The notes beneath the pieces are model-generated. The model ran no database searches and was not told where the DNA came from. It saw nothing but the letters and a program-made list of their open reading frames with translations. Of a stretch of 41,207 bases of DNA, positions 2,741 to 36,542 are shown piece by piece. The stretch is taken from assembly GCA_002841605.1 (NCBI GenBank), contig PHAF01000001.1, positions 1 to 41,207 on the forward strand. Direction: 5' to 3'. The stretch comes from Firmicutes bacterium HGW-Firmicutes-10. Its GTDB lineage: Bacteria; Bacillota_I; Bacilli_A; Erysipelotrichales; Erysipelotrichaceae. Position 1 is the stretch's first letter, and the number at the start of each line of letters is the position of its first letter. The position numbers were made by a program, and so were the translations under genes.

Positions 2741-3127
2741 TCATCGATCTTTGTTGGCCAGAGCAATCAGCATCAAATCAGCAGTTGACGGATTGCTTGC
2801 CGTAGGGATATCGTATAACACCGCAATTCTCAAGAGTGCTTTAACATCTGGATCATGCGGTTGGGAAGTCAGCGGATCCCAAAAGAAAATCAGCATGTCG
2901 ATTTCTTTTTGGGCGATAGCAGCCCCAATCTGCTGATCCCCGCCTAAAGGTCCCGACATATAGCCTTTGACTTGAAGTCCGCTGGCATCAGCAACGCGCT
3001 TAGAAGTCGTTCCTGTACCGCATAAATTGTGAATAGATAGTTCTGCTTTATGTGTTAAAACCCACTTGACTAAATCGTCTTTGCGATTATCATGTGCTAT
3101 CAGTGCAATGTTTAAGTTTTTCTTCAT
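2741..3127 (-). CDS. mgsA: Methylglyoxal synthase
   Basis: 128 aa with IALIAHDNRKDDLV, LCGTGTT, GPLGGDQQIGA and FFWDPL..PHDPDVKALLR, which are characteristic MgsA motifs. RBS is GGGGG. Confidence 0.9.
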   Translation of the reverse strand: MKKNLNIALIAHDNRKDDLVKWVLTHKAELSIHNLCGTGTTSKRVADASGLQVKGYMSGPLGGDQQIGAAIAQKEIDMLIFFWDPLTSQPHDPDVKALLRIAVLYDIPTASNPSTADLMLIALANKDR

Positions 3128-3157
3128 ATTTACCCCCGATTTTCAACTTTATTGTAA

Positions 3158-3188
3158 CATAAAAGCCGGTGCCTTTCGACACCGGCTT
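3158..3188 (-). terminator. Intrinsic terminator after the heliorhodopsin gene
   Basis: On the minus strand there is a GCCGGTG / CACCGGC stem followed by TTTTATGTT. Confidence 0.55.
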
Positions 3189-3215
3189 ATCTATATCAAC
3201 GGATCAAAGATCCGA

Positions 3216-3995
3216 TTATGGTTGCATTGCTCCAAACAATACCAACCATGCAAGAATCGACTTTGCAGCCAGACTCAATACGATATATGTGCGTTCTCCA
3301 TAGAGATAATCTTTCCACTTACCAATCCCTTTATACTGAAGGATCATATTAATAGGGAAGGTATTAAATGCTACAAAATATGTGCCTACGATAGCCCAGA
3401 CAAACCATGGGACCATATCGAAATTCCCTGTTCCAAACATGTAAATGAAGATGGCGATCCAAGGTGCCAGACCGGCAAGACTGCCCCAGATAAAGGGTCC
3501 CCAGTTGACCTTTTTCTTCTCGGTTCCTGCATTAATCAATTCCATATCCAATCCGAATAAGTTCATGGATGCATTTACGATAAAGATCAGAATCAATGAT
3601 ACGATATCATAAATTCCAAACAACGTAGAAATCAGTACAATCATGATCGATGAGCTCAAGGCATACTCAAACCACCGGAACTTGTTGATGCCTTGTTTGA
3701 GGTCCTCAACGTATTTTTTTGCGTTAAGCACGATCAAACCATGTGCTAATGCTGATATAAGAAGGAAGGATGCGACCAGAATACCAAAGGGTAAAGCAAA
3801 CAATTCACGACTGACAACTTCCAGTGACCGGGTTTCGAAATTGAATGTCTGATAATACTGGATGATCGTCGGTTGAAACTCACTGATTTTCTGAATAACG
3901 GTCGTCGCAAGAAACAACATAGCCAATCCCTGAACAAGGTGGAAACCACCCATGATTAAGTTAAATCTTTTTAGTTTTGCGTAAGTGTCTTTCAT
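3216..3995 (-). CDS. Heliorhodopsin (7-TM retinal-binding photoreceptor family)
   Basis: 259 aa, 7 predicted TM helices. Motifs are GGFHLVQ, SALAHG, NKFRWFEYALSSSIMIVLI, VNASM and QYKGIGKWKDYLYGERTYIVLSLAAKSILAW. They match the conserved His/His, Glu counterion and Schiff-base Lys regions of characterised heliorhodopsins as I recall them. No type-1 pump motifs are present. Confidence 0.85.
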   Translation of the reverse strand: MKDTYAKLKRFNLIMGGFHLVQGLAMLFLATTVIQKISEFQPTIIQYYQTFNFETRSLEVVSRELFALPFGILVASFLLISALAHGLIVLNAKKYVEDLKQGINKFRWFEYALSSSIMIVLISTLFGIYDIVSLILIFIVNASMNLFGLDMELINAGTEKKKVNWGPFIWGSLAGLAPWIAIFIYMFGTGNFDMVPWFVWAIVGTYFVAFNTFPINMILQYKGIGKWKDYLYGERTYIVLSLAAKSILAWLVLFGAMQP

Positions 3996-4021
3996 TTGAG
4001 AATATCTCCTTTTGTAAGTAT

Positions 4022-4050
4022 ATTATATATCTTAAAATAATATAATGCAA
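4022..4050 (-). promoter_or_regulatory. Predicted sigma-A-type promoter of the heliorhodopsin gene
   Basis: The minus strand reads TTGCAT (4050-4045) - 17 nt - TATAAT (4027-4022), about 25 nt upstream of the ATG. RBS is AGGAG. Confidence 0.5.
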
Positions 4051-4059
4051 TTAAATTGC
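4047..4059. promoter_or_regulatory. Perfect 13-bp palindrome overlapping the heliorhodopsin -35 (candidate operator)
   Basis: GCAATT-a-AATTGC. Confidence 0.3.
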
Positions 4060-4195
4060 GTAAAATATAAATTGTTTTTTTTGTAAGTTTTTTTCTTAGG
4101 TTTAAACTTGAAGAATTTAATTGATTTTGCTATTTCGGTCAAAAATCCTGAGGATTTATTGAATTATGTTATCATTTTAATAATCGAGGTGCATC

Positions 4196-5662
4196 ATGTT
4201 AAAATCAAATACAGATTTTGAAAGTATCGGCTTTCAACTTAACTCAAGTTATAGCAGTTTGCCCAAGAAACTATACACGCTTATGCAACCAGAGAAAGTT
4301 ACAAAGTCATCGCTGGTCGTTTTTAACGATGCTTTAGCCATGCAACTCGGCTTGAATTTTTCGAAAATATCAGATCAAGACAAAGCAGCGATTTTCTCCG
4401 GGATGTTACGTATACCGAGCTCTAACCCTCTGGCTCAAGCGTATGCCGGACATCAGTTTGGTCGATTTACCTATCTTGGCGATGGAAGGGCATTGTTGTT
4501 GGCAGAACACATGACACCAGATCACAAGCTTATCGATATTCAGTTGAAAGGATCAGGACCGACCCCGTATTCACGAGGCGGGGATGGCCTGGCAGCGTTG
4601 GGACCTATGTTGCGAGAATACCTTATCAGTGAGGCGATGGCAGCATTAAACATTCTCACAACAAGAAGTTTGGCGGTCGTACTTACTCATCAGAAAGTTA
4701 AAAGACAGGTTGAACTGGATGGGGCGGTTTTAACACGTATAGCTCAAAGTCACATCCGGGTCGGAACCTTCCAGTATGCGATAGCTGAAGGCGGATTAGA
4801 AACTCTAAAAGCGTTGGCAGATTACACCATACAAAGACATTATCCGCATATAAATGAAGAAAACCGCTATTTGGGATTATTGAATGAGGTCATCAAAGCA
4901 CAGGCAGAACTGATTGCTCAGTGGCAACTGACCGGTTTTGTGCATGGTGTGATGAATACCGATAATATGGCGATCAGCGGAGAAACGATCGATTACGGGC
5001 CATGTGCATTTTTGGATGTTTACGAGCCGAAGACCGTGTTTAGTTCGATCGATTATTCCGGCCGTTATGCTTATGTCAATCAACCGGCGATAGCCGCCTG
5101 GAATCTGGCGAGATTTGCGGAAACGTTGCTTCCGATTCTTAATAAAGATCAGTTCTTGGCTCAGACTCTAGCACAAAATGCGGTGGAAACGTTCTTGCCG
5201 CAGTTTAAAGATGAGTTTCTGAAGGGGATGAGAAAGAAGTTGGGGTTGTTCAACATAGAAAGTAATGACGAGACTTTGATTGAAGAACTGCTTTCAATCA
5301 TGCAGAAAGTGAAGGCAGACTATAACAAAACATTTGTGAATCTAGCATTGGACTTGGATAGCTTTCGAATAAATCCAACCTATAACGCATGGCTAGAGAA
5401 ATATGAGCTGCGCAGAAGCAAACAAAAAGAAACTTTTGCAGAGTCCGTTGAATTGATGAAAAGAGTCAATCCCTCCATCATCCCACGCAATCATCTGGTA
5501 GAACAAGCTCTGTTACAAGCAAGTGAACATCAGGATCTAAGTCTTTTTGAGCATTTACTCGATTTGGTCCGTCAACCATTTGCTTACATGGATGAGCAAT
5601 TGTATCTGGATCAACCGGATTTACAATCAAGCAAGCCTTACAGGACGTATTGTGGAACATAA
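4196..5662 (+). CDS. selO: Protein adenylyltransferase (AMPylase) SelO/YdiU family
   Basis: 488 aa with AYAGHQFG, LGDGRA, LKGSGPTPYSRGGDG, HIRVGTFQ and HGVMNTDNMAISGETIDYGPCAF. The C-terminus is ...YRTYCGT, with the conserved near-terminal Cys. Confidence 0.9.
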   Translation: MLKSNTDFESIGFQLNSSYSSLPKKLYTLMQPEKVTKSSLVVFNDALAMQLGLNFSKISDQDKAAIFSGMLRIPSSNPLAQAYAGHQFGRFTYLGDGRALLLAEHMTPDHKLIDIQLKGSGPTPYSRGGDGLAALGPMLREYLISEAMAALNILTTRSLAVVLTHQKVKRQVELDGAVLTRIAQSHIRVGTFQYAIAEGGLETLKALADYTIQRHYPHINEENRYLGLLNEVIKAQAELIAQWQLTGFVHGVMNTDNMAISGETIDYGPCAFLDVYEPKTVFSSIDYSGRYAYVNQPAIAAWNLARFAETLLPILNKDQFLAQTLAQNAVETFLPQFKDEFLKGMRKKLGLFNIESNDETLIEELLSIMQKVKADYNKTFVNLALDLDSFRINPTYNAWLEKYELRRSKQKETFAESVELMKRVNPSIIPRNHLVEQALLQASEHQDLSLFEHLLDLVRQPFAYMDEQLYLDQPDLQSSKPYRTYCGT

Positions 5663-8675: not shown

Positions 8676-10172
8676 TCAAGGACCGAAACTCGGATCCGGT
8701 AAACCAACCACAGCATGAGCAATTACATAGATATCACCATACAGCGATTTTTCAATGTAGTATTGACCCGGAGCAACGGTTTCAACCATTCTTCTTCCGA
8801 CTTTCACTAAAGGATACATTCCTTTTCCGGCATATACATGAGTTTCATCAAGATCATACATAGCATCGAGCTCGTAATTGACAACTATGAGGTTACCGAT
8901 GAAAGATACTTTTACTGTTCCGACTACTGTACCGCCCATGCATTGTCCAGCACCGGCAATAAGTGGCATTTCATAGTAACCAGGAACAGTTATTTTATTT
9001 GTCCAACCCCAGCGGCTGAATCCGTCTTCAAGGAAACATCTGGAATTTTCACCCTTAGCAAATGCTGTTTCGTATACGAAACATTGAATATAAACTTTAA
9101 CATTAGCAGTAGAGTAACCAAGAACTACATCATCATCTCCGTAAACGGTTGCGGTATTACCATACTCTTCTGCTCCACAGAGATCTTTTCCGTAGTCTTC
9201 CCATGCGAACATTTTATCATAGGTAAACTTCTCGATATCGCCTTTATCGTAATCATAAGCATCGAGTGTTCCAAGGGTTGCTAAACCGAATAGATCACTT
9301 TGATCTTTGACAACAACAGTAGCATGCACATCGTTTTCCGGGTCGCCCCAAACGACGGCTTTGGTATCTGAATAAACATCTCTTTCGGTGGTGACGGTTA
9401 CAACATTATCATTCATGAATTCTCCATCTTCATCATAAGTACAACTCAATGTTGCATCTTTGACTAAGAGGTAAGGGAATGTTATTTCACCACAATCAAC
9501 ATCGATTGGAGTTCCGTCAAGGACATCTTCAATTTTTGTAATCGTTGCATCAAGATCACCGGTATTTTCAATTTTGATCGTACCGCTGACATTATGATCA
9601 GCGTCAACAAATCCTAAATAAGTTACATCAACTTTCCATGTAGCTTTTCCATCGCCACTACCATCGACGAACAAGTAGAACGCATCTTTATCAACTGATT
9701 TTGCGATCGACCAGTCATGGGTGCGATTGAAAGTGGTGTTAACAGTTTTACTTACGGTTAGCTCTTCTTTTTCGGTGCCTGGGCAATAATCGGAAAGAAC
9801 GAAGTTGCCATCGTGGGTTCCTTTATAGAAAATAGTTGCTTCAAGCTCATCAATATCGAAATATGGTGTCATGAAATGGTAAACTTTGCTTAGAACTTTG
9901 GTTGGGGCATAAGTACCAAAACCAGATCCGCCTAATCTAAGTTCTGCATCTGTAACATCGCCGGCTTGATTGAATATCCAGTGCATCCAACCATCAGCAG
10001 TACGGCCTTCCTGACCGACATATTCACAATGTTCTGAATCGGTTCCTTGGCGTGTCCACTCAACTGAACCATCCCATGTAGTTACAGCCATTGTGGAGAT
10101 AGCAAACATCGCGAAGAAGACTGTTAATATGATACCGAAGTCAAACCATTTCTTTAAGCGATAATTAGTCAT
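8676..10172 (-). CDS. Secreted or membrane-anchored protein of unknown family (498 aa, Asp/Thr/Val/Gly-rich, 8 Cys)
   Basis: Strong RBS AAGGAGG. N-terminal signal/anchor is FDFGIILTVFFAMFAISTMAV. The composition is beta-rich and acidic. I recognise no family. Confidence 0.7.
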   Translation of the reverse strand: MTNYRLKKWFDFGIILTVFFAMFAISTMAVTTWDGSVEWTRQGTDSEHCEYVGQEGRTADGWMHWIFNQAGDVTDAELRLGGSGFGTYAPTKVLSKVYHFMTPYFDIDELEATIFYKGTHDGNFVLSDYCPGTEKEELTVSKTVNTTFNRTHDWSIAKSVDKDAFYLFVDGSGDGKATWKVDVTYLGFVDADHNVSGTIKIENTGDLDATITKIEDVLDGTPIDVDCGEITFPYLLVKDATLSCTYDEDGEFMNDNVVTVTTERDVYSDTKAVVWGDPENDVHATVVVKDQSDLFGLATLGTLDAYDYDKGDIEKFTYDKMFAWEDYGKDLCGAEEYGNTATVYGDDDVVLGYSTANVKVYIQCFVYETAFAKGENSRCFLEDGFSRWGWTNKITVPGYYEMPLIAGAGQCMGGTVVGTVKVSFIGNLIVVNYELDAMYDLDETHVYAGKGMYPLVKVGRRMVETVAPGQYYIEKSLYGDIYVIAHAVVGLPDPSFGP

Positions 10173-11686: not shown

Positions 11687-12397
11687 ATGAACTTAAATCA
11701 ATCTGAACGAAGGATTCATGTCACCTTACTGATCATAGGTCTTATGGTACTTGGTTGGTCCTATATTGATCATCGCTTAACTTTTGGTTGGATATTGTTG
11801 ACTGTGCCGATTGTCATTGCATCCATACTTTTCATTTCTACTTATAAGAAATTCACATTTACGACCCTGATTTACATCATCGGATTTTTCTGGGCTTGCT
11901 TGTTGATGGTCGGAGCAAAATATACATATACATACGTTCCGATTTTCGACAGCATCAGTGAAGCCTTTGGATTAACAAGAAATTATTACGATCGTTTCGC
12001 ACATTTTGCTCAAGGGTTTGTGCCGTTTTTGATATTTCGGGAATATCTGATGCGCAGGGGAATTTTATCAAATCGTAAATCAACCACGCTCATCGTTATC
12101 GGATTGGTATTGGCGTTTTCTGCATCCTGGGAGTTGCTTGAGTATTCCACAGCCGAACTATCCGGGAAGTCACAATCATTTATTCTCGATATGCAAGGAG
12201 ACATTTGGGATACACAACTGGACATGTTGTCAGCAATTGCAGGTGCTATCACTTCATGGTTGTTATTAGGAAAGATTCATTTGCGACTTATTGAGGATAA
12301 AATGAAGAAGCAAGACCATTTGCTTATCCATTCAGACTCAGGTTCGGTGGGTGATAAGGTAAAATCGAATGGAGATGACAACGATTTAATCACTTGA
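11687..12397 (+). CDS. DUF2238-type (E. coli YjdF-like) polytopic membrane protein
   Basis: Multi-TM protein. The segment NYYDRFAHFAQGFVPFLIFREYL resembles the DUF2238 core. RBS is GAGGA. Confidence 0.65.
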   Translation: MNLNQSERRIHVTLLIIGLMVLGWSYIDHRLTFGWILLTVPIVIASILFISTYKKFTFTTLIYIIGFFWACLLMVGAKYTYTYVPIFDSISEAFGLTRNYYDRFAHFAQGFVPFLIFREYLMRRGILSNRKSTTLIVIGLVLAFSASWELLEYSTAELSGKSQSFILDMQGDIWDTQLDMLSAIAGAITSWLLLGKIHLRLIEDKMKKQDHLLIHSDSGSVGDKVKSNGDDNDLIT

Positions 12398-18360: not shown

Positions 18361-18623
18361 GGGAATATCGGTGGCGCTTATAGTCATTACCGACAACTTC
18401 GTCGTAGTTACAATGAAGACCGCTTTTCAGCGATCTTTATTGCACAATAATTGCATATCAGTAACACAGACATTCATGATTATTGAATTTTCTTCTCATA
18501 CAATCTATACTTGAATCACGTTCAGTGAAGAAAACATTTTTGTCATCAGAGAGCAAGTATAGGTATAGAATCTTTAAAAATGCGCAACATACTCTAACAA
18601 AGATATCAAAAGGGGAAGTATTT

Positions 18624-19370
18624 ATGAGTAAATATAAGTTTATAAAAAAAGTGGAAGAGATGATAAAAACAGAAGATATAGCAACATTGAGGTTGATCGG
18701 CCCACTTCTCAGATATGTGCCAGGAAAATTCCAAGCCAAAGCAATGGAGAATTCAAGTAAGGATAATCCATACTTAGGTTTTGTTGTGGAACCATACAGT
18801 ACTTTTCTGTTTTATGAGTTAATTGATTTGGATTGGGCTAGAAGATTGATCCCCGATGGGTTTGAGTTAGAGAAAACTAAGGTTTTTAGCGATGGACAAC
18901 CCAAATACTACATAGCTTTTGCATCTTTTAATGTGAAGACATCCGCCTTTGCCGGCACCAGATTGGAAGTTAATATAATTGCCAGAAGTAAGAAAACAGG
19001 GCTAATCAGCTGGATCATTGTCGATTATGATACCAATACCCTGAGTCATGATGCTCTTAAGGGAGTTATAGACAGTACGACTAAGCAAGCGGTATTTACC
19101 ACCGATTATGAAGGCAATATCATCGTGGATATATCCAATTCTGAGAAAAACAGAGCATTGATTTTTGATTTGGACAGTAATGGTGCTGAATATAAAACGG
19201 TTGAAAAAAGTTTCTGGCTTGAGGGGAATTTATCCGTAGGATATGGCAGAGAAATATCAAAAAACTCTCCCGCTGCTTTTGCGATGAAGTTTGACCCGAG
19301 GGAAGTTGAGAAAGCCTGCAGGGTAGATGTGAATAAGATTAATTCAATTGAGAATACCTGGTATCCGTGA
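18624..19370 (+). CDS. Hypothetical protein (248 aa), possibly acetoacetate-decarboxylase-like / DUF2071-type fold
   Basis: Start is ATG 18624 with AAGGGGA upstream, not ORF-track 18483. The family call rests only on weak resemblance. The ORF ends at a TGA that is in frame with the next ORF. Confidence 0.55.
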   Translation: MSKYKFIKKVEEMIKTEDIATLRLIGPLLRYVPGKFQAKAMENSSKDNPYLGFVVEPYSTFLFYELIDLDWARRLIPDGFELEKTKVFSDGQPKYYIAFASFNVKTSAFAGTRLEVNIIARSKKTGLISWIIVDYDTNTLSHDALKGVIDSTTKQAVFTTDYEGNIIVDISNSEKNRALIFDLDSNGAEYKTVEKSFWLEGNLSVGYGREISKNSPAAFAMKFDPREVEKACRVDVNKINSIENTWYP

Positions 19371-26171: not shown

Positions 26172-26771
26172 GTGAAAATTAATGATGGGATCATTAAGCA
26201 TTATCTAAAGAATGTGTTCTTTATCAATGGTACAGCGTATGCCGGCAAATCCACAATGGCAGCTCTATTGGCCAGTAAGCACAATATGATTCTGTGTGGT
26301 GAGAATTACCATACTAAAACAACAAGCATCCTTGCTTATCCTGAGCAATATCCGAATCTATGTTATTTTCATACTATGAAAGACTGGCAGGAGTTTGTTA
26401 ACAGAACTCCTGAAGAGTATTCAGCATGGATCGAAGGGACGACAAATGAGTTGGTCGAATTTGAGATTGCGGAGTTGATTCACATTTCAAAAGACCGAAA
26501 AGTAATCGTTGATACGAACATTCCCATTGAGATCCTGAAACGTATCGCTGATCATCATCAAGTTGCGATTTTGCTATCTCCCCAATCCATGTCTGTCGAT
26601 CGTTTCTTCGACAGAAAAGATCCAGACAAGCAGTTTTTGCTTTCGCAGATTCAAAAAGCGGAAAATCCCGAGAAGACCATGGAGAATTTCCGCAAATGCA
26701 TTGCTAAGATCAACAGCAAAGAAAACTATGACATGTTTTTAAACAGTGGTTTTTTCACCATCATCAGATAA
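26172..26771 (+). CDS. Small P-loop NTPase / kinase-like protein (199 aa), GTG start
   Basis: AAGGAGG lies 7 nt upstream of the GTG. Walker A is NGTAYAGKST. I recognise no specific family. Confidence 0.65.
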   Translation: MKINDGIIKHYLKNVFFINGTAYAGKSTMAALLASKHNMILCGENYHTKTTSILAYPEQYPNLCYFHTMKDWQEFVNRTPEEYSAWIEGTTNELVEFEIAELIHISKDRKVIVDTNIPIEILKRIADHHQVAILLSPQSMSVDRFFDRKDPDKQFLLSQIQKAENPEKTMENFRKCIAKINSKENYDMFLNSGFFTIIR

Positions 26772-32707: not shown

Positions 32708-33628
32708 CTATTCCGGATTTGTCAATTTGACACTTAAATCATAAACCTGCTTGCCCAAGGATCGATCCAATGCGTGCTTAGCGGGTTTTTCTTCAATGGT
32801 CAAATGAAAGAACTTGTCGCTTACACCTTCCATCTGTGCGTCCGCGACTAAGTAGTAAATCGCTTCCCCGGAAATCTTAGGATCTTTTAACATCGGTTGG
32901 ATAAAAAACTTGGAAAAAGTCCGATACAGCCAGCCGTTGTTACTGCCGATATGTGTCTTGACATCCCCGGGATGCATGGCGTTGATTGTGACTCCAGAGT
33001 CTTTCAGATGATCAGCAATCTCCCACATAGTCAGAAGCTGTGCTGTTTTCGAAGCACCGTAACCCCGCAGTCCGGTATAATGACGTTTTTTCCAGTTTAA
33101 ATCATGGATGTCCAATCCGTTAAAACGATGCCCCTCGGAGTTGATATGAAGAATTCGTGAGGGTGCACTTTGTATCATCCGATCGAGCAGTAACTGTGTA
33201 AAGTGAAAAGAGGCCAAATGATTTACAAAAAATACCGTTTCAAAACCTTCCGGTGTATAAGTGGCTTTGGTTGAATGCAATCCGGCACAGTTGATCAAAA
33301 CATCGATTCTGGGGTAGCGTTCAAGAATTTCTGAGGCCGCACGGCGGATGTGACGCAACTCATTAAAATCCGCGACGACGATGTCTATGTGAGCCGGATG
33401 TTGCGATAACACAGCTTCTCTGACTTTTTTTGCCTTTTCATGATTCCTTGCGACCATAACGACCGTTGCTTCACCTTTTGCAAGTTGTTTGAGAGCTTCA
33501 AGACCGACTCCGGAAGTTGCTCCTGTTAATACGACAACTTTCCCTTTCATCGATGCATCACTCTTTTTTTGTTCAGCCTTCGCATTTCTTAAAAACATTA
33601 GCTCATCAGGCAGTTCGTACATTTTCAT
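32708..33628 (-). CDS. Classical short-chain dehydrogenase/reductase, retinol-dehydrogenase-like subgroup
   Basis: TGATSGVGLEA (TGxxxGxG), NCAG, catalytic YGASK, and AMHPGDVKT. RBS is AAGGAG, 9 nt after the upstream stop. Confidence 0.85.
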   Translation of the reverse strand: MKMYELPDELMFLRNAKAEQKKSDASMKGKVVVLTGATSGVGLEALKQLAKGEATVVMVARNHEKAKKVREAVLSQHPAHIDIVVADFNELRHIRRAASEILERYPRIDVLINCAGLHSTKATYTPEGFETVFFVNHLASFHFTQLLLDRMIQSAPSRILHINSEGHRFNGLDIHDLNWKKRHYTGLRGYGASKTAQLLTMWEIADHLKDSGVTINAMHPGDVKTHIGSNNGWLYRTFSKFFIQPMLKDPKISGEAIYYLVADAQMEGVSDKFFHLTIEEKPAKHALDRSLGKQVYDLSVKLTNPE

Positions 33629-33637
33629 CGTAGCTCC

Positions 33638-34114
33638 TTATCCGAAATACTTAAACATCATCTTACGGTAAAATTTACCAAAGCGGGGAATACCATTAAA
33701 TATGTCTCCCCACAAATCGTAGTAATCCCGTTGCTCGATGATCAATCCCTCATTATTGAGGGTCAACCGCGTACAACCGTATACCGGTGTACTAGGCGTT
33801 TTCTTAAATGACATCGTCATCTTCCATTCCATGGAAATAATATTCTCATTTTTCATCACATTCGACAAATCCATCGACAGTGACTCACATCGTTTTGTCA
33901 AACGGTTGCACATCGCTGTGAAGTCATCGATTCCTTCAATACGCTGGATGGAATCCTGGAAGACGATATTGGGATGATAATAGGGGAATATATGGGACCA
34001 GTCCGGTTTCCCGTTTTTGTTATAGGTTTTCGACCACAAACGAACAACAGACTCAACAGTTAACTCTTCTAGAGGCTCATTCACTTGCTCAATGACCGTA
34101 TCTTGATTACTCAA
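33638..34114 (-). CDS. SnoaL/NTF2-like fold protein (158 aa), TTG start
   Basis: The size and alternating hydrophobic pattern fit the NTF2-like superfamily. It overlaps the upstream stop by 8 nt. The family call is tentative. Confidence 0.6.
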   Translation of the reverse strand: MSNQDTVIEQVNEPLEELTVESVVRLWSKTYNKNGKPDWSHIFPYYHPNIVFQDSIQRIEGIDDFTAMCNRLTKRCESLSMDLSNVMKNENIISMEWKMTMSFKKTPSTPVYGCTRLTLNNEGLIIEQRDYYDLWGDIFNGIPRFGKFYRKMMFKYFG

Positions 34115-35741
34115 TGTCAGATCCGCCTTTCTTCTTTGAATTTGATTTTATCACATTTTTGATGATTGCATCAGCCGCAAGCTTTCCGGTAAGTATTGAC
34201 ACCGGAACGCCGGCAGGATTGAATGTCCATTGGCCGGCCTGCTTAATCGAATCGATCGGCGTAAGTACGGATTTGGCTAAGCGCGTGAACCGGTATTCGG
34301 TTGGGAAGGGGTTATTGGCAAAGGACCAACCGGTCAACGATCCCTGAGTGTTATGTGTTTTTCGGGCGATGGACAGCGGTGTCGATACGATCGTCTTACG
34401 AACATGCTTATTTAAGTCATCGATGGTAGCATTGGATAAATGCTTGATCATCAAAGAAGTGATGTAATGTTTGAAATCATCGTATAGATTCAACTCATCA
34501 AAGTGTTTGACCAACTGGTAATCAAACAGTAAAGAAACGATCAGCCCTGTCTGACCTTCGGGGGAAAGAGCAGGATCACGCAACACGGGGATTGAAACTT
34601 CAAGTGTGTTATATTCAACAAAATCGGATATCCAATCAAATAACCGGTCTTTATCTTCTATGAATTTTCCTTTTTGTTTGATATCTTCCAGTGAGATATC
34701 TGCAAGGCCCTCTATGCGCGGTGTATAAAAACAGTGAGGTCCAAAGATAGCCTCGAAATACTGAGGCGGTAAATCTGTAAGCATGTATACCGTCAAGACG
34801 GAATCAGCACCTGTTTTGTTCTCAAGAAGTTTGATATGCCGATTGATTTTTGATAAAAGCTTTGGTGAAGCAATATTTTTGCGATCAATCATATGATAAA
34901 GCCGGTTGGTATCGGCTGCCCATAACAATTGATCATAAGAATATACTTGCCCTTGGGCTGTAGTGATCTGCTTTCTTTCAACATCGATTCCATTGACCTC
35001 TTGATTTGTCTTGATCTTACCACCGTTGGACAGTATCAGAGATTTCAGTTGATCAACGATCGTTTGCGTCGAACCTTTGGGATAATGATATTGCATATAC
35101 AGCGTGAAATAGGAAAGAGCGAAGAATGTCGGTGTCATTGAAAAGAAGTGTTGCGTAATGATAAATATGAGAGATTCATTGCTGGTGCGGGTTTTCAGAA
35201 AATCATTGATTGGATCAAGCATTTTTGACATTTTGCGAATATTGAAAGCAAATTTGAAAACCCACGGCAACAGCGTATGGGTCAAATAGTCCATCTCGTA
35301 AGGTTTGGGTAGAAACAGCGGATTTTCGATTCCATATAAAACATCCATCGTCTTCATGACATGTTTGATATCTGTCACAATGACATCGATATCCTTAACA
35401 TTATCCGGATACAATTGCTTTAACATAGAACCATATTGCTCGATATCGGATTCTTCCGTCAGTGTGACCGACTGTGAACCGATAGTGATTTTAATGGGAT
35501 TTGAAAGAAACTCAATTTCAATCCCGAGTTGTCGTAACATGGGAAAAACGATGCCCGAATCGATGATACTGCGTGCACCTTTGTCCAGCACATGACCATC
35601 CACGTTAAAAGAACCCAGCAAACCGCCGATTTCCGCCTCTTTTTCCAAAAGCAATACATTGAGATTTTCTTTGCTTAGATATGCGGTAGCCGTTAGCCCG
35701 GCAATACCACTGCCAACTACGATGACATCAACATGGTTCAT
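34107..35741 (-). CDS. FAD-dependent oxidoreductase of the phytoene desaturase (CrtI) / RetSat-like family
   Basis: Start is ATG 35741 (GGAGG 9 nt upstream), not ORF-track 35882. The dinucleotide fold is VDVIVVGSGIAGLTATAYLSKENLNVLLLEKE..GG. The ~544-aa length and the C-terminal GQWTFNPAGVPVSILTG fit the CrtI-like amine-oxidase superfamily. Confidence 0.8.
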   Translation of the reverse strand: MNHVDVIVVGSGIAGLTATAYLSKENLNVLLLEKEAEIGGLLGSFNVDGHVLDKGARSIIDSGIVFPMLRQLGIEIEFLSNPIKITIGSQSVTLTEESDIEQYGSMLKQLYPDNVKDIDVIVTDIKHVMKTMDVLYGIENPLFLPKPYEMDYLTHTLLPWVFKFAFNIRKMSKMLDPINDFLKTRTSNESLIFIITQHFFSMTPTFFALSYFTLYMQYHYPKGSTQTIVDQLKSLILSNGGKIKTNQEVNGIDVERKQITTAQGQVYSYDQLLWAADTNRLYHMIDRKNIASPKLLSKINRHIKLLENKTGADSVLTVYMLTDLPPQYFEAIFGPHCFYTPRIEGLADISLEDIKQKGKFIEDKDRLFDWISDFVEYNTLEVSIPVLRDPALSPEGQTGLIVSLLFDYQLVKHFDELNLYDDFKHYITSLMIKHLSNATIDDLNKHVRKTIVSTPLSIARKTHNTQGSLTGWSFANNPFPTEYRFTRLAKSVLTPIDSIKQAGQWTFNPAGVPVSILTGKLAADAIIKNVIKSNSKKKGGSDIE

Positions 35742-35862
35742 ACTCTTTGACCTCCAAGATGATGTGAGAATATTCATGTTTTTATCATAACACAAAACAT
35801 TATTTACAACATATTGAAAGAAACTTCTGATACGAAAAAACAATGGAATCAATGAATCAAGG

Positions 35863-35889
35863 GTTAAAAAAACCCGTATCAACGGGTTA
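35863..35889 (-). terminator. Intrinsic terminator after the YczE-like gene
   Basis: The minus strand reads AACCCGT-tgat-ACGGGTT followed by T6. Confidence 0.7.
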
Positions 35890-35897
35890 TAATTGAA

Positions 35898-36542
35898 TCA
35901 TTCGTTTAAGCCCAGTCTTTTTACAAGCGGGGTAAACCTCGGTATAAACCAGGCAATCATAGGACCAAACAAGAGCATACCAATGACCGTGCCTTCCCTG
36001 ATAGGGATCGGGTTTTTAAAAGATATCGCGATTACGAGTGCACCAATGATCGAAAAGACATCGACCAGTTGACGGATCGTACCAAACTTCAATTTTGTTT
36101 TGGTTGATATGGCCATACACGCGGCTTCAAGGGGAAAACTTAGAAAGTTGATTGACATGATCAAGGCTACAGCCATGATGATAACAAGCAATGAACCTAA
36201 ATAAATCAGCATGTTAATGATATAGCTGTCAATGATCACACCGCCCAACACTTCATAAAATACGATGTTAACGAAAAAGCCGAGCAGGATGGCCATAAAT
36301 ATCTGAAGGAAAGACAATAACTTAAAATCTTTCTTCAAAATGACCAATTGGACAAGCACGCAACTTAAATTCATCATCATTGAAAATGTACCGACTTTAA
36401 TACCGATGACTGTAGAAGTTGCTTGACTGAAAGCATCCCAGGCACCGACACCGACTGCGGCTTTTAATCCCAGTGCCACACCGGTTGCTGCTACAACTAT
36501 GAAAAAAGCGGTAAACAGACTTTTTTTGATAAACAACGACAT
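35898..36542 (-). CDS. YczE/YitT-like polytopic membrane protein
   Basis: 214 aa, about 6 TM. The N-terminus LFTAFFIVVAATGVALGLKAAVGVGAWDAF resembles the YczE/YitT family. Confidence 0.6.
   Translation of the reverse strand: MSLFIKKSLFTAFFIVVAATGVALGLKAAVGVGAWDAFSQATSTVIGIKVGTFSMMMNLSCVLVQLVILKKDFKLLSFLQIFMAILLGFFVNIVFYEVLGGVIIDSYIINMLIYLGSLLVIIMAVALIMSINFLSFPLEAACMAISTKTKLKFGTIRQLVDVFSIIGALVIAISFKNPIPIREGTVIGMLLFGPMIAWFIPRFTPLVKRLGLNE

Follow-up and report, generated by a model that had tools for sequence, protein, structure and literature searches.

A constrained heliorhodopsin gene, most probably transcribed on its own, in an Erysipelotrichaceae-type genome

Introduction

The heliorhodopsin (HeR) of Trichococcus flocculiformis, TfHeR, is encoded in an operon with a class II cyclobutane pyrimidine dimer (CPD) photolyase, which it binds and stimulates (PMC9769723). 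Two other HeRs, AbHeR and OcHeR, regulate glutamine synthetase (PMC9529153) and an ABC transporter/exporter (PMC11109279), respectively. Besides photolyase, the groups co-transcribed with HeR genes comprise glutamine synthetase, NAD+ synthetase, MerR, TerC, an ABC transporter, a short-chain dehydrogenase/reductase (SDR), an alpha/beta hydrolase, DUF2177 and DUF2238; the ten recurrent groups of HeR neighbors do not include mgsA, patatin or SelO, and of 448 helR genes surveyed, 38.6% have a neighbor predicted to share their transcript, whereas the remaining ~61% stand alone (PMC11109279). HeR contexts have been described as lineage-specific and 'promiscuous', and HeRs of strict anaerobes have already been noted (Bulzu et al., PMC8612252). 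Here, we analyze a HeR gene located near one end of a 41,207-nucleotide stretch of DNA, referred to as the window, which is the whole sequence analyzed and originates from Firmicutes bacterium HGW-Firmicutes-10 (contig PHAF01000001.1 of assembly GCA_002841605.1). None of the published co-transcription groups adjoins this gene in a same-strand operon, its same-strand neighbor being mgsA, behind a predicted terminator. The positions of all features are collected in Table 1.

Results

Profile and database searches identify a full-length heliorhodopsin

We identify the 259-residue product as a genuine full-length HeR on the basis of its family and database matches. The protein aligns with the entire Pfam profile PF18761 (positions 1-242 of 242; E=1.5e-92, 309.7 bits against a cutoff of 26.7) and with the NCBIfam HeR equivalog NF038020 (283.7 bits against a cutoff of 100). 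A search of PDB sequences returned heliorhodopsins only, with E=1e-54 to 1e-46, among them TaHeR (6is6, E=1e-54), the eukaryotic Cv06 (9vfc, E=1.5e-49) and 48C12 (6su3, E=7e-47). The database search retrieved 4728 homologs at E<=1e-10, and proteins 95% identical to the query already carry the name 'heliorhodopsin HeR [Erysipelotrichaceae bacterium]'. The Pfam scan yielded no match to the type-1 rhodopsin family PF01036 (Bac_rhodopsin) at E<=0.01, and the third transmembrane helix (TM3) reads NKFRWFEYALSSS and is not of the RYxDW type. The closest genomes are labelled Erysipelotrichaceae or Firmicutes, and we treat the host as a monoderm by these taxonomic labels alone.

A preliminary description of the window, made from its letters, had recognized the product as a heliorhodopsin devoid of type-1 pump motifs and had proposed a profile hidden Markov model search as a check. 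Both profiles score far above their cutoffs and, together with the TaHeR match and the absence of a PF01036 match, bear out this assignment. The motifs that it quoted are all found, namely GGFHLVQ (containing H19), SALAHG (H85), NKFRWFEYALSSS (E110), VNASMNLFG and SLAAKSILAW (K245).

The retinal-pocket residues are invariant and the predicted fold is that of a heliorhodopsin

The residues that characterize HeRs align position by position with those of the structurally determined members. In the HMMER alignments, H19, H85, E110, S241 and K245 correspond to H23, H80, E107, S237 and K241 of 48C12, and H19, H85, E110 and K245 correspond to H23, H82, E108 and K238 of TaHeR, once the 6-residue offset of chain 6is6_A is allowed for; the lysine, glutamate and histidine columns, which the preliminary description had singled out for such an alignment, all match their counterparts. 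K245 occupies the position of the Schiff-base lysine of TM7 and S241 that of the TM7 serine of HeRs, whereas H19 and H85 are the signature histidines of TM1 and TM2. E110, the single TM3 glutamate counterion, lies within FRWFEY, which fits the RW(F/V)EY motif of the family.

We assessed conservation using relatives collected by one-genome-per-species scans, in which 325 stretches encode HeR relatives; the best 80 (74-98% identical, L001-L080) were analyzed and their translated HeRs, together with the query, gave a set of 81 sequences. H19, H85, E110, S241 and K245 do not differ in any of the 81 sequences, throughout which 107 of the 259 positions are fixed. A carotenoid-binding fenestration has been proposed in HeRs, involving F212, C216, G219, F254, N255 and P258 of Cv06 (bioRxiv 10.1101/2025.11.27.691015). 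These residues map to F168, S172, G175, F210, N211 and P214 of the query in the HMMER alignment, and F168, G175, F210 and P214 do not vary within the set.

The AlphaFold2 model predicts a HeR-like fold comprising seven long helices and a β-hairpin (residues 45-64, with strands 45-52 and 57-64) in the TM1-TM2 loop. A β-hairpin in this loop is characteristic of HeR crystal structures. The ten best Foldseek matches of the model are all HeRs (TM-scores of 0.74-0.82, E down to 4e-17), with TaHeR and 48C12 leading the list at 0.76-0.82, whereas type-1 rhodopsins reach TM-scores of ~0.5 at 10-14% identity. Counting lysines and arginines, we found 14 on the loops of the N-terminal side and 3 on the other side; by the positive-inside rule, this charge bias predicts a cytoplasmic N-terminus and hence the inverted topology (N-in, C-out) typical of the HeR family.

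Conserved signals delimit a probable transcription unit

The five genomes that share the gene order of the window (L001-L005) retain a promoter, a ribosome-binding site (RBS) and a terminator hairpin with covariation. The HeR gene therefore most probably yields a stand-alone transcript, in support of the monocistronic reading proposed previously. The sigma-A-type promoter TTGCAT-17-TATAAT, which had likewise been called from the letters, keeps its position in the window and in all five relatives, with TATAAT, TATACT and TACAAT as variants of the -10 element. It was missing from the list produced by a consensus scan because its -35 element fits TTGACA at 3 of 6 positions. The -35 element, the -10 element and the RBS block AAAAGGAGATATT are in register across the six genomes and AAAAGGAGATATT is invariant.

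The best-conserved upstream stretch in the six-genome alignment, TATATTTTACGCAATTTAATTGCATTATAT, contains the inverted repeat GCAAT-N3-ATTGC over the -35 element, and this palindrome may be an operator or an UP element. The block is kept in L005 despite a different upstream gene there. The motif is single in the window (0.03 occurrences expected by chance) and the block was not found upstream of HeR in the more distant loci; on these grounds, we rejected the idea of a regulon marked by the palindrome. A different palindrome, resembling CRP/FNR sites, is conserved ~55-65 nt upstream of the HeR start in Christensenellaceae-type loci (L035, L039, L041, L044-L046, L048, L057-L059, L062, L064, L065, L067, L068 and L072), for example TGTGCGTTTATCACGG and CGTGATAAAATCACTT, which suggests that these HeRs are under a different regulatory factor than those of the window's lineage.

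The 3' region of the gene carries two hairpins and has a predicted RNA folding energy of -31.8 kcal/mol (z=-5.09). The small hairpin is maintained through compensatory changes in L002, L003 and L005, and one stem pair of the larger hairpin covaries as G-C, G-U and A-U in the six genomes. The 11-bp stem, the z-score and the covariation substantiate the hairpin and T-run terminator described from the letters, with the qualification that the U-tract UUUUAUGUU is short and interrupted. The tail of the terminator overlaps an extended -10 element, TGTTACAAT, suited to mgsA. No Rfam family of riboswitches or known small RNAs was found at a meaningful score in the HeR flanks.

The gene is under strong purifying selection and its neighborhood reflects descent

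Compared with L001-L005, whose HeRs are at least 92% identical to the query, the HeR gene has a ratio of nonsynonymous to synonymous substitution rates (dN/dS) of 0.02-0.04, and in dN it ranks last or close to last among the neighboring genes. Ratios this low indicate strong purifying selection on a gene that is in use. The divergent selO gene is less constrained, with 67-86% versus 92-98% amino-acid identity and a dN/dS of 0.14 versus 0.02. The GC fraction of the HeR gene (~0.40) equals that of its flanks and both synteny and promoter are conserved, which led us to reject a recent horizontal transfer into this genome.

An identical protein is encoded on contigs from NCBI (GCA_002840205.1), ENA, JGI and Logan, and the three contigs long enough to show the neighbors (NCBI, ENA and JGI) carry the same ones, including an IS3-family element. 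The window and GCA_002840205.1 represent separate assemblies of one population or of two nearly identical ones. Judging by its accession prefix (PGZU, next to the PGZW and PGZM of HGW records), GCA_002840205.1 probably belongs to the same series of metagenome-assembled genomes.

Annotation of the window's open reading frames (ORFs) confirmed the mgsA-patatin pair beside the HeR gene and the divergent selO. Using tblastn, we detected the DEAD-box helicase, patatin, mgsA, selO, pfkB kinase and flotillin genes beside HeR only in L001-L005, with L005 lacking selO beside HeR yet keeping the HeR promoter block. The mgsA/patatin/selO arrangement occurs in 0 of the other 75 loci, a single trace in L080 aside, where distantly related patatin (32% identity) and pfkB (22% identity) genes lie near HeR. 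Since the neighbors are shared by the five closest genomes only, we interpret the neighborhood as synteny by descent, its genes being bystanders, and we rejected the mgsA/patatin/selO context as a functional clue. The preliminary description had considered this context new and informative and had suggested a survey of its recurrence. That view did not hold, as the neighborhood recurs in 5 of the 80 genomes and the identical protein and neighbors are present in GCA_002840205.1. The protein, its family and its gene arrangement were all known beforehand, and the arrangement is uninformative.

De novo clustering of the flanking ORFs of the 80 loci gave an ABC ATPase as the top family, present at 22 of the 80 loci and separated from HeR by a median of ~4 kb; the other families are generic, namely a DEAD-box helicase, a histidine kinase and a response regulator, as judged by reading representative sequences. 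Same-strand neighbors lie less than 60 nt from HeR at only 8 loci upstream and at 9 downstream, in line with the published share of stand-alone helR genes (PMC11109279).

The HeRs of L006-L080, 74-84% identical to the query, belong to metagenome-assembled genomes (MAGs) labelled Bacillota or Chloroflexota (Dehalococcoidia, Anaerolineaceae), and relatives also occur under the diderm labels Fusobacteria (L009), Desulfovibrionaceae (L074) and Sumerlaeota (L063). Upstream of its HeR gene, L009 is very similar in sequence to the Bacillota MAGs L019 and L024. Such a spread across phyla suggests horizontal transfer, extreme constraint, or mislabelled or misbinned contigs.

The window holds no recognizable retinal pathway

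Pfam and NCBIfam scans of the ORFs of the 41-kb window revealed no phytoene synthase (crtB), lycopene cyclase (crtY), Blh or CCD-type gene, in agreement with the earlier statement that no chromophore pathway lies nearby. Activity on isoprenoids or retinoids is conceivable for a single gene set of the window, a four-gene cluster encoding a YczE-like membrane protein and a COG1233 flavoprotein followed by a SnoaL/DUF2358-like protein and an SDR. The flavoprotein is the sole relative of carotenoid enzymes encoded in the window. The best PDB matches of the flavoprotein are an uncharacterized protein and, weakly, gamma-carotene desaturase, with no close solved homolog, and its homologs are widespread COG1233 'phytoene dehydrogenase-like' proteins of anaerobic Firmicutes. 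The SDR best matches the NCBIfam oxidoreductase subfamily PRK06197, below its cutoff. No homologs of the flavoprotein, the SnoaL-like protein or the SDR stand beside HeR in the 80 loci; given this result and a CrtI-family score of 71 bits against a cutoff of 238, we rejected the cluster as a retinal pathway. Some retinoid- or carotenoid-modifying role of the flavoprotein is possible.

Other features of the window

A DUF2238 membrane protein gene lies 7.7 kb from HeR in the window and ~4 kb away in L002, and its product is 34% identical to the copies of the Trichococcus HeR operons. The SDR gene of the four-gene cluster is located 29 kb from HeR.

The IS3-family element sits between the DEAD-box helicase gene and patatin, and 3 (L081-L083) of the 4 contigs shown with the identical HeR contain it. 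The helicase and patatin matches obtained by tblastn in L001 are ~60 nt apart, leaving no room for it, and the element looks like a recent strain-level insertion. At positions 3869-4174 of L082 (the JGI contig with the identical HeR), the gene in the mgsA position encodes 101 residues as against 128 in the window, with no MGS Pfam match recorded, which could reflect a frameshift, a deletion or a fault in the assembly. Three ORFs of the window have no Pfam or NCBIfam match, the largest of which is kept at 67-70% identity in L003 and L004.

Table 1. Features of the window, with positions counted from its first nucleotide
Feature	Position	Strand	Details
Heliorhodopsin (HeR) coding sequence	3216..3995	minus	ATG start; 259 aa; full-length family match
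Sigma-A-type promoter	4022..4050	minus	-35 TTGCAT at 4050..4045; 17-nt spacer; -10 TATAAT at 4027..4022
RBS AAGGAGA	4005..4011	minus	9 nt 5' of the ATG; inside block AAAAGGAGATATT
Most conserved upstream block TTTTACGCAATTTAATTGCATTAT	4042..4065	minus	inverted repeat GCAAT-N3-ATTGC overlapping the -35 element
Small hairpin CGGATC-TTT-GATCCG	3200..3214	minus	directly 3' of the stop codon
Intrinsic-terminator-like hairpin AAGCCGGTGTC-GAAA-GGCACCGGCTT, then UUUUAUGUU	3153..3188	minus	11-bp stem at 3188..3163
mgsA	2741-3127	same as HeR	downstream of HeR; family profile scans; 88-nt gap to HeR
patatin	1949-2731	same as HeR	downstream of HeR; family profile scans
selO	4196-5662	divergent from HeR	family profile scans; 200-bp shared intergenic region
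Amino_oxidase (COG1233) flavoprotein	34107-35882	minus	CrtI family 71 bits against a cutoff of 238; ORF of 591 aa, homologs ~544 aa
Four-gene cluster with flavoprotein	32708-36542	minus	YczE-like, COG1233, SnoaL/DUF2358-like, SDR
SDR of the cluster	32708-33628	minus
DUF2238 membrane protein	11687-12397	plus
IS3-family element	836-1904	plus	orfA 85 aa; orfB 247 aa with rve and HTH_21 domains
ORF without family match	8676-10172	minus	498 aa
ORF without family match	18483-19370	plus	295 aa
ORF without family match	26172-26771	plus	199 aa

Discussion

Our data make it reasonably probable that the window encodes a functional HeR, inherited vertically in an Erysipelotrichaceae-type monoderm and transcribed as a unit of its own. 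The apoprotein would bind all-trans-retinal at K245. The chromophore is not made by genes of the window and would probably be scavenged, which is plausible because monoderm cells can take up retinoids and carotenoids, and an exogenous xanthophyll may bind at the fenestration motif formed by F168, S172, G175, F210, N211 and P214. Light absorption would start a slow photocycle, and the pigment would serve as a 'helper' rhodopsin with a sensory or regulatory role, the positively charged cytoplasmic loops modulating a partner protein encoded elsewhere in the genome. Such a retinal-binding sensory 'helper' acting on an unlinked partner is the most likely mechanism here, by analogy with the precedents of TfHeR (photolyase), AbHeR (glutamine synthetase) and OcHeR (ABC transporter).

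Several points weigh against this interpretation. The AlphaFold2 model, computed from a shallow alignment of 26 sequences, is of moderate confidence (pLDDT 70.6, pTM 0.61). Some read-through into mgsA-patatin is possible because the U-tract is short. No source of retinal was found within the 41-kb window, no neighbor family recurs tightly across the 80 HeR loci and no partner emerged from them. Retinal chromophore synthesis normally needs O2, and both light sensing and O2-dependent retinal synthesis are hard to picture in the many anaerobic lineages of the clade and in deep, dark and anoxic groundwater, from which near-identical genes come (see below).

Among the alternative explanations, a coupling of HeR to mgsA-patatin by read-through, which would form a light-regulated module for methylglyoxal or lipid remodeling, is suggested by the shared strand, the 88-nt gap and the interrupted U-tract, as well as by the HeR-mgsA-patatin synteny in L001-L003 and L005 and the HeR-mgsA order in L004, whose DNA ends just past mgsA. 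We nevertheless consider it improbable, given the strong covarying hairpin between the two genes and the extended -10 promoter that mgsA possesses in the terminator tail. Moreover, the other 75 loci have no mgsA as close as 6 kb to HeR and, for patatin, just the distant homolog of L080, and both genes are outside the ten published neighbor groups (PMC11109279). A joint role of HeR and the divergent selO in a redox-stress response, through a common regulatory region, deserves still less credence. SelO is an AMPylating enzyme that acts on redox proteins, a protective role against oxidative damage by light has been proposed for HeRs, and the two genes diverge from a shared 200-bp intergenic region in an arrangement kept in L001-L004. 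HeRs have also been linked to glutaredoxin, peroxiredoxin and catalase (Bulzu et al., PMC8612252). However, the HeR promoter block persists in L005 where selO is not beside it, selO evolves faster than HeR, and selO adjoins HeR in 0 of the other 75 loci. Finally, we regard ion transport gated or driven by light, as in the viral V2HeR3, as extremely unlikely. Some viral HeRs transport protons (cited in PMC11109279 and PMC12873467), but the query carries the fenestration motif that is absent from the mostly viral HeR subfamily 2, which includes ion transporters (bioRxiv 10.1101/2025.11.27.691015). The closest relatives of the query in structure and sequence are TaHeR and 48C12, which are not known to transport ions.

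The habitats of the relatives call for a separate appraisal of a role in the dark. The contig name of L001, which encodes a 98%-identical HeR in the same synteny, bears the label 08E140C01, that of a borehole of the Horonobe underground laboratory, whose groundwater was sampled at 140-250 m depth (PMC11657941). Elsewhere in the HeR clade, many members carry the labels of anaerobes or originate from anaerobic reactors and sediments; they comprise Dehalococcoidia, Anaerolineaceae, Christensenellaceae, Syntrophomonadaceae and MAGs from anaerobic membrane bioreactors (AnMBR), among others. The sequences indicate that a tightly conserved clade (75-98% identity, 107 invariant positions and an intact lysine, counterion and pocket) spans phylogenetically distant anaerobes, with Erysipelotrichaceae among them. 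If the cells never see light or O2, selection (dN/dS ~0.02) would have to maintain something different from ordinary photoreception, which could be a light-independent function that depends on retinal or carotenoid, or a dependence on scavenged chromophore; we judge this unlikely. We hold the same doubt about the broader proposal of a light-independent retinoid or carotenoid binder or sensor, or a lipid scramblase, which draws on the Horonobe and anaerobe records and on the strong purifying selection of a gene for which no retinal pathway was found in the window. It also has a precedent in a proteorhodopsin that is reported to act as a lipid scramblase (PMC10730872). Because the Schiff-base lysine and the pocket are invariant, retinal binding is probably still the selected property. 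Furthermore, other sample types have also yielded the same lineage; its cells may therefore see light elsewhere and are not necessarily restricted to dark habitats, and boreholes drilled from lit galleries can carry introduced organisms. A genuinely light-independent function is thus possible but unlikely.

The retinal-binding sensory HeR that we favor adds one more stand-alone member to several thousand, with neighbors that give no functional clue. The useful outcome is a negative one, which advises against proposing mgsA, patatin or selO as partners of HeR. A strongly constrained HeR clade in anaerobes and the deep subsurface provides a modest lead on the origin of the chromophore and on a role in the dark, and the clade has cultured, facultatively anaerobic members in Trichococcus, Jeotgalibaca and Halolactibacillus.

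Comparison with characterized heliorhodopsins

The 'heliorhodopsin HeR' proteins of Erysipelotrichaceae MAGs are 95-100% identical to the query and have the same gene order, with no substantive difference. The HeRs of T. ilyis (L069) and Trichococcus sp. (L073), which stand in for TfHeR, are 78-79% identical to the query over the full length. The T. ilyis HeR gene lies downstream of genes for a DNA photolyase, DUF2238, DUF6448 and signal peptidase I, a gene order that corresponds to the operon published for TfHeR (PMC9769723), whereas the HeR gene of the window stands alone and none of the window ORFs scanned contains a DNA_photolyase domain. The Trichococcus HeR and the query share an origin in monoderm Bacillota as well as all of the invariant key residues.

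Among HeRs of known structure, TaHeR of Thermoplasmatales archaeon SG8-52-1 (PDB 6is6, 7clj and 7u55) is the best match (~42% identity, TM-scores of 0.79-0.81). TaHeR is archaeal, and the query differs from it by a TM1-TM2 loop that is 7 residues longer and by small insertions in the TM4-TM5 and TM5-TM6 loops. The founding member 48C12 (PDB 6su3, 6su4 and 6uh3) shares ~40% identity with the query, at TM-scores of 0.76-0.82. Its Q213 is replaced by M217 in the query, a methionine as in TaHeR, and its fenestration residue A210 by P214, a proline as in the eukaryotic Cv06.

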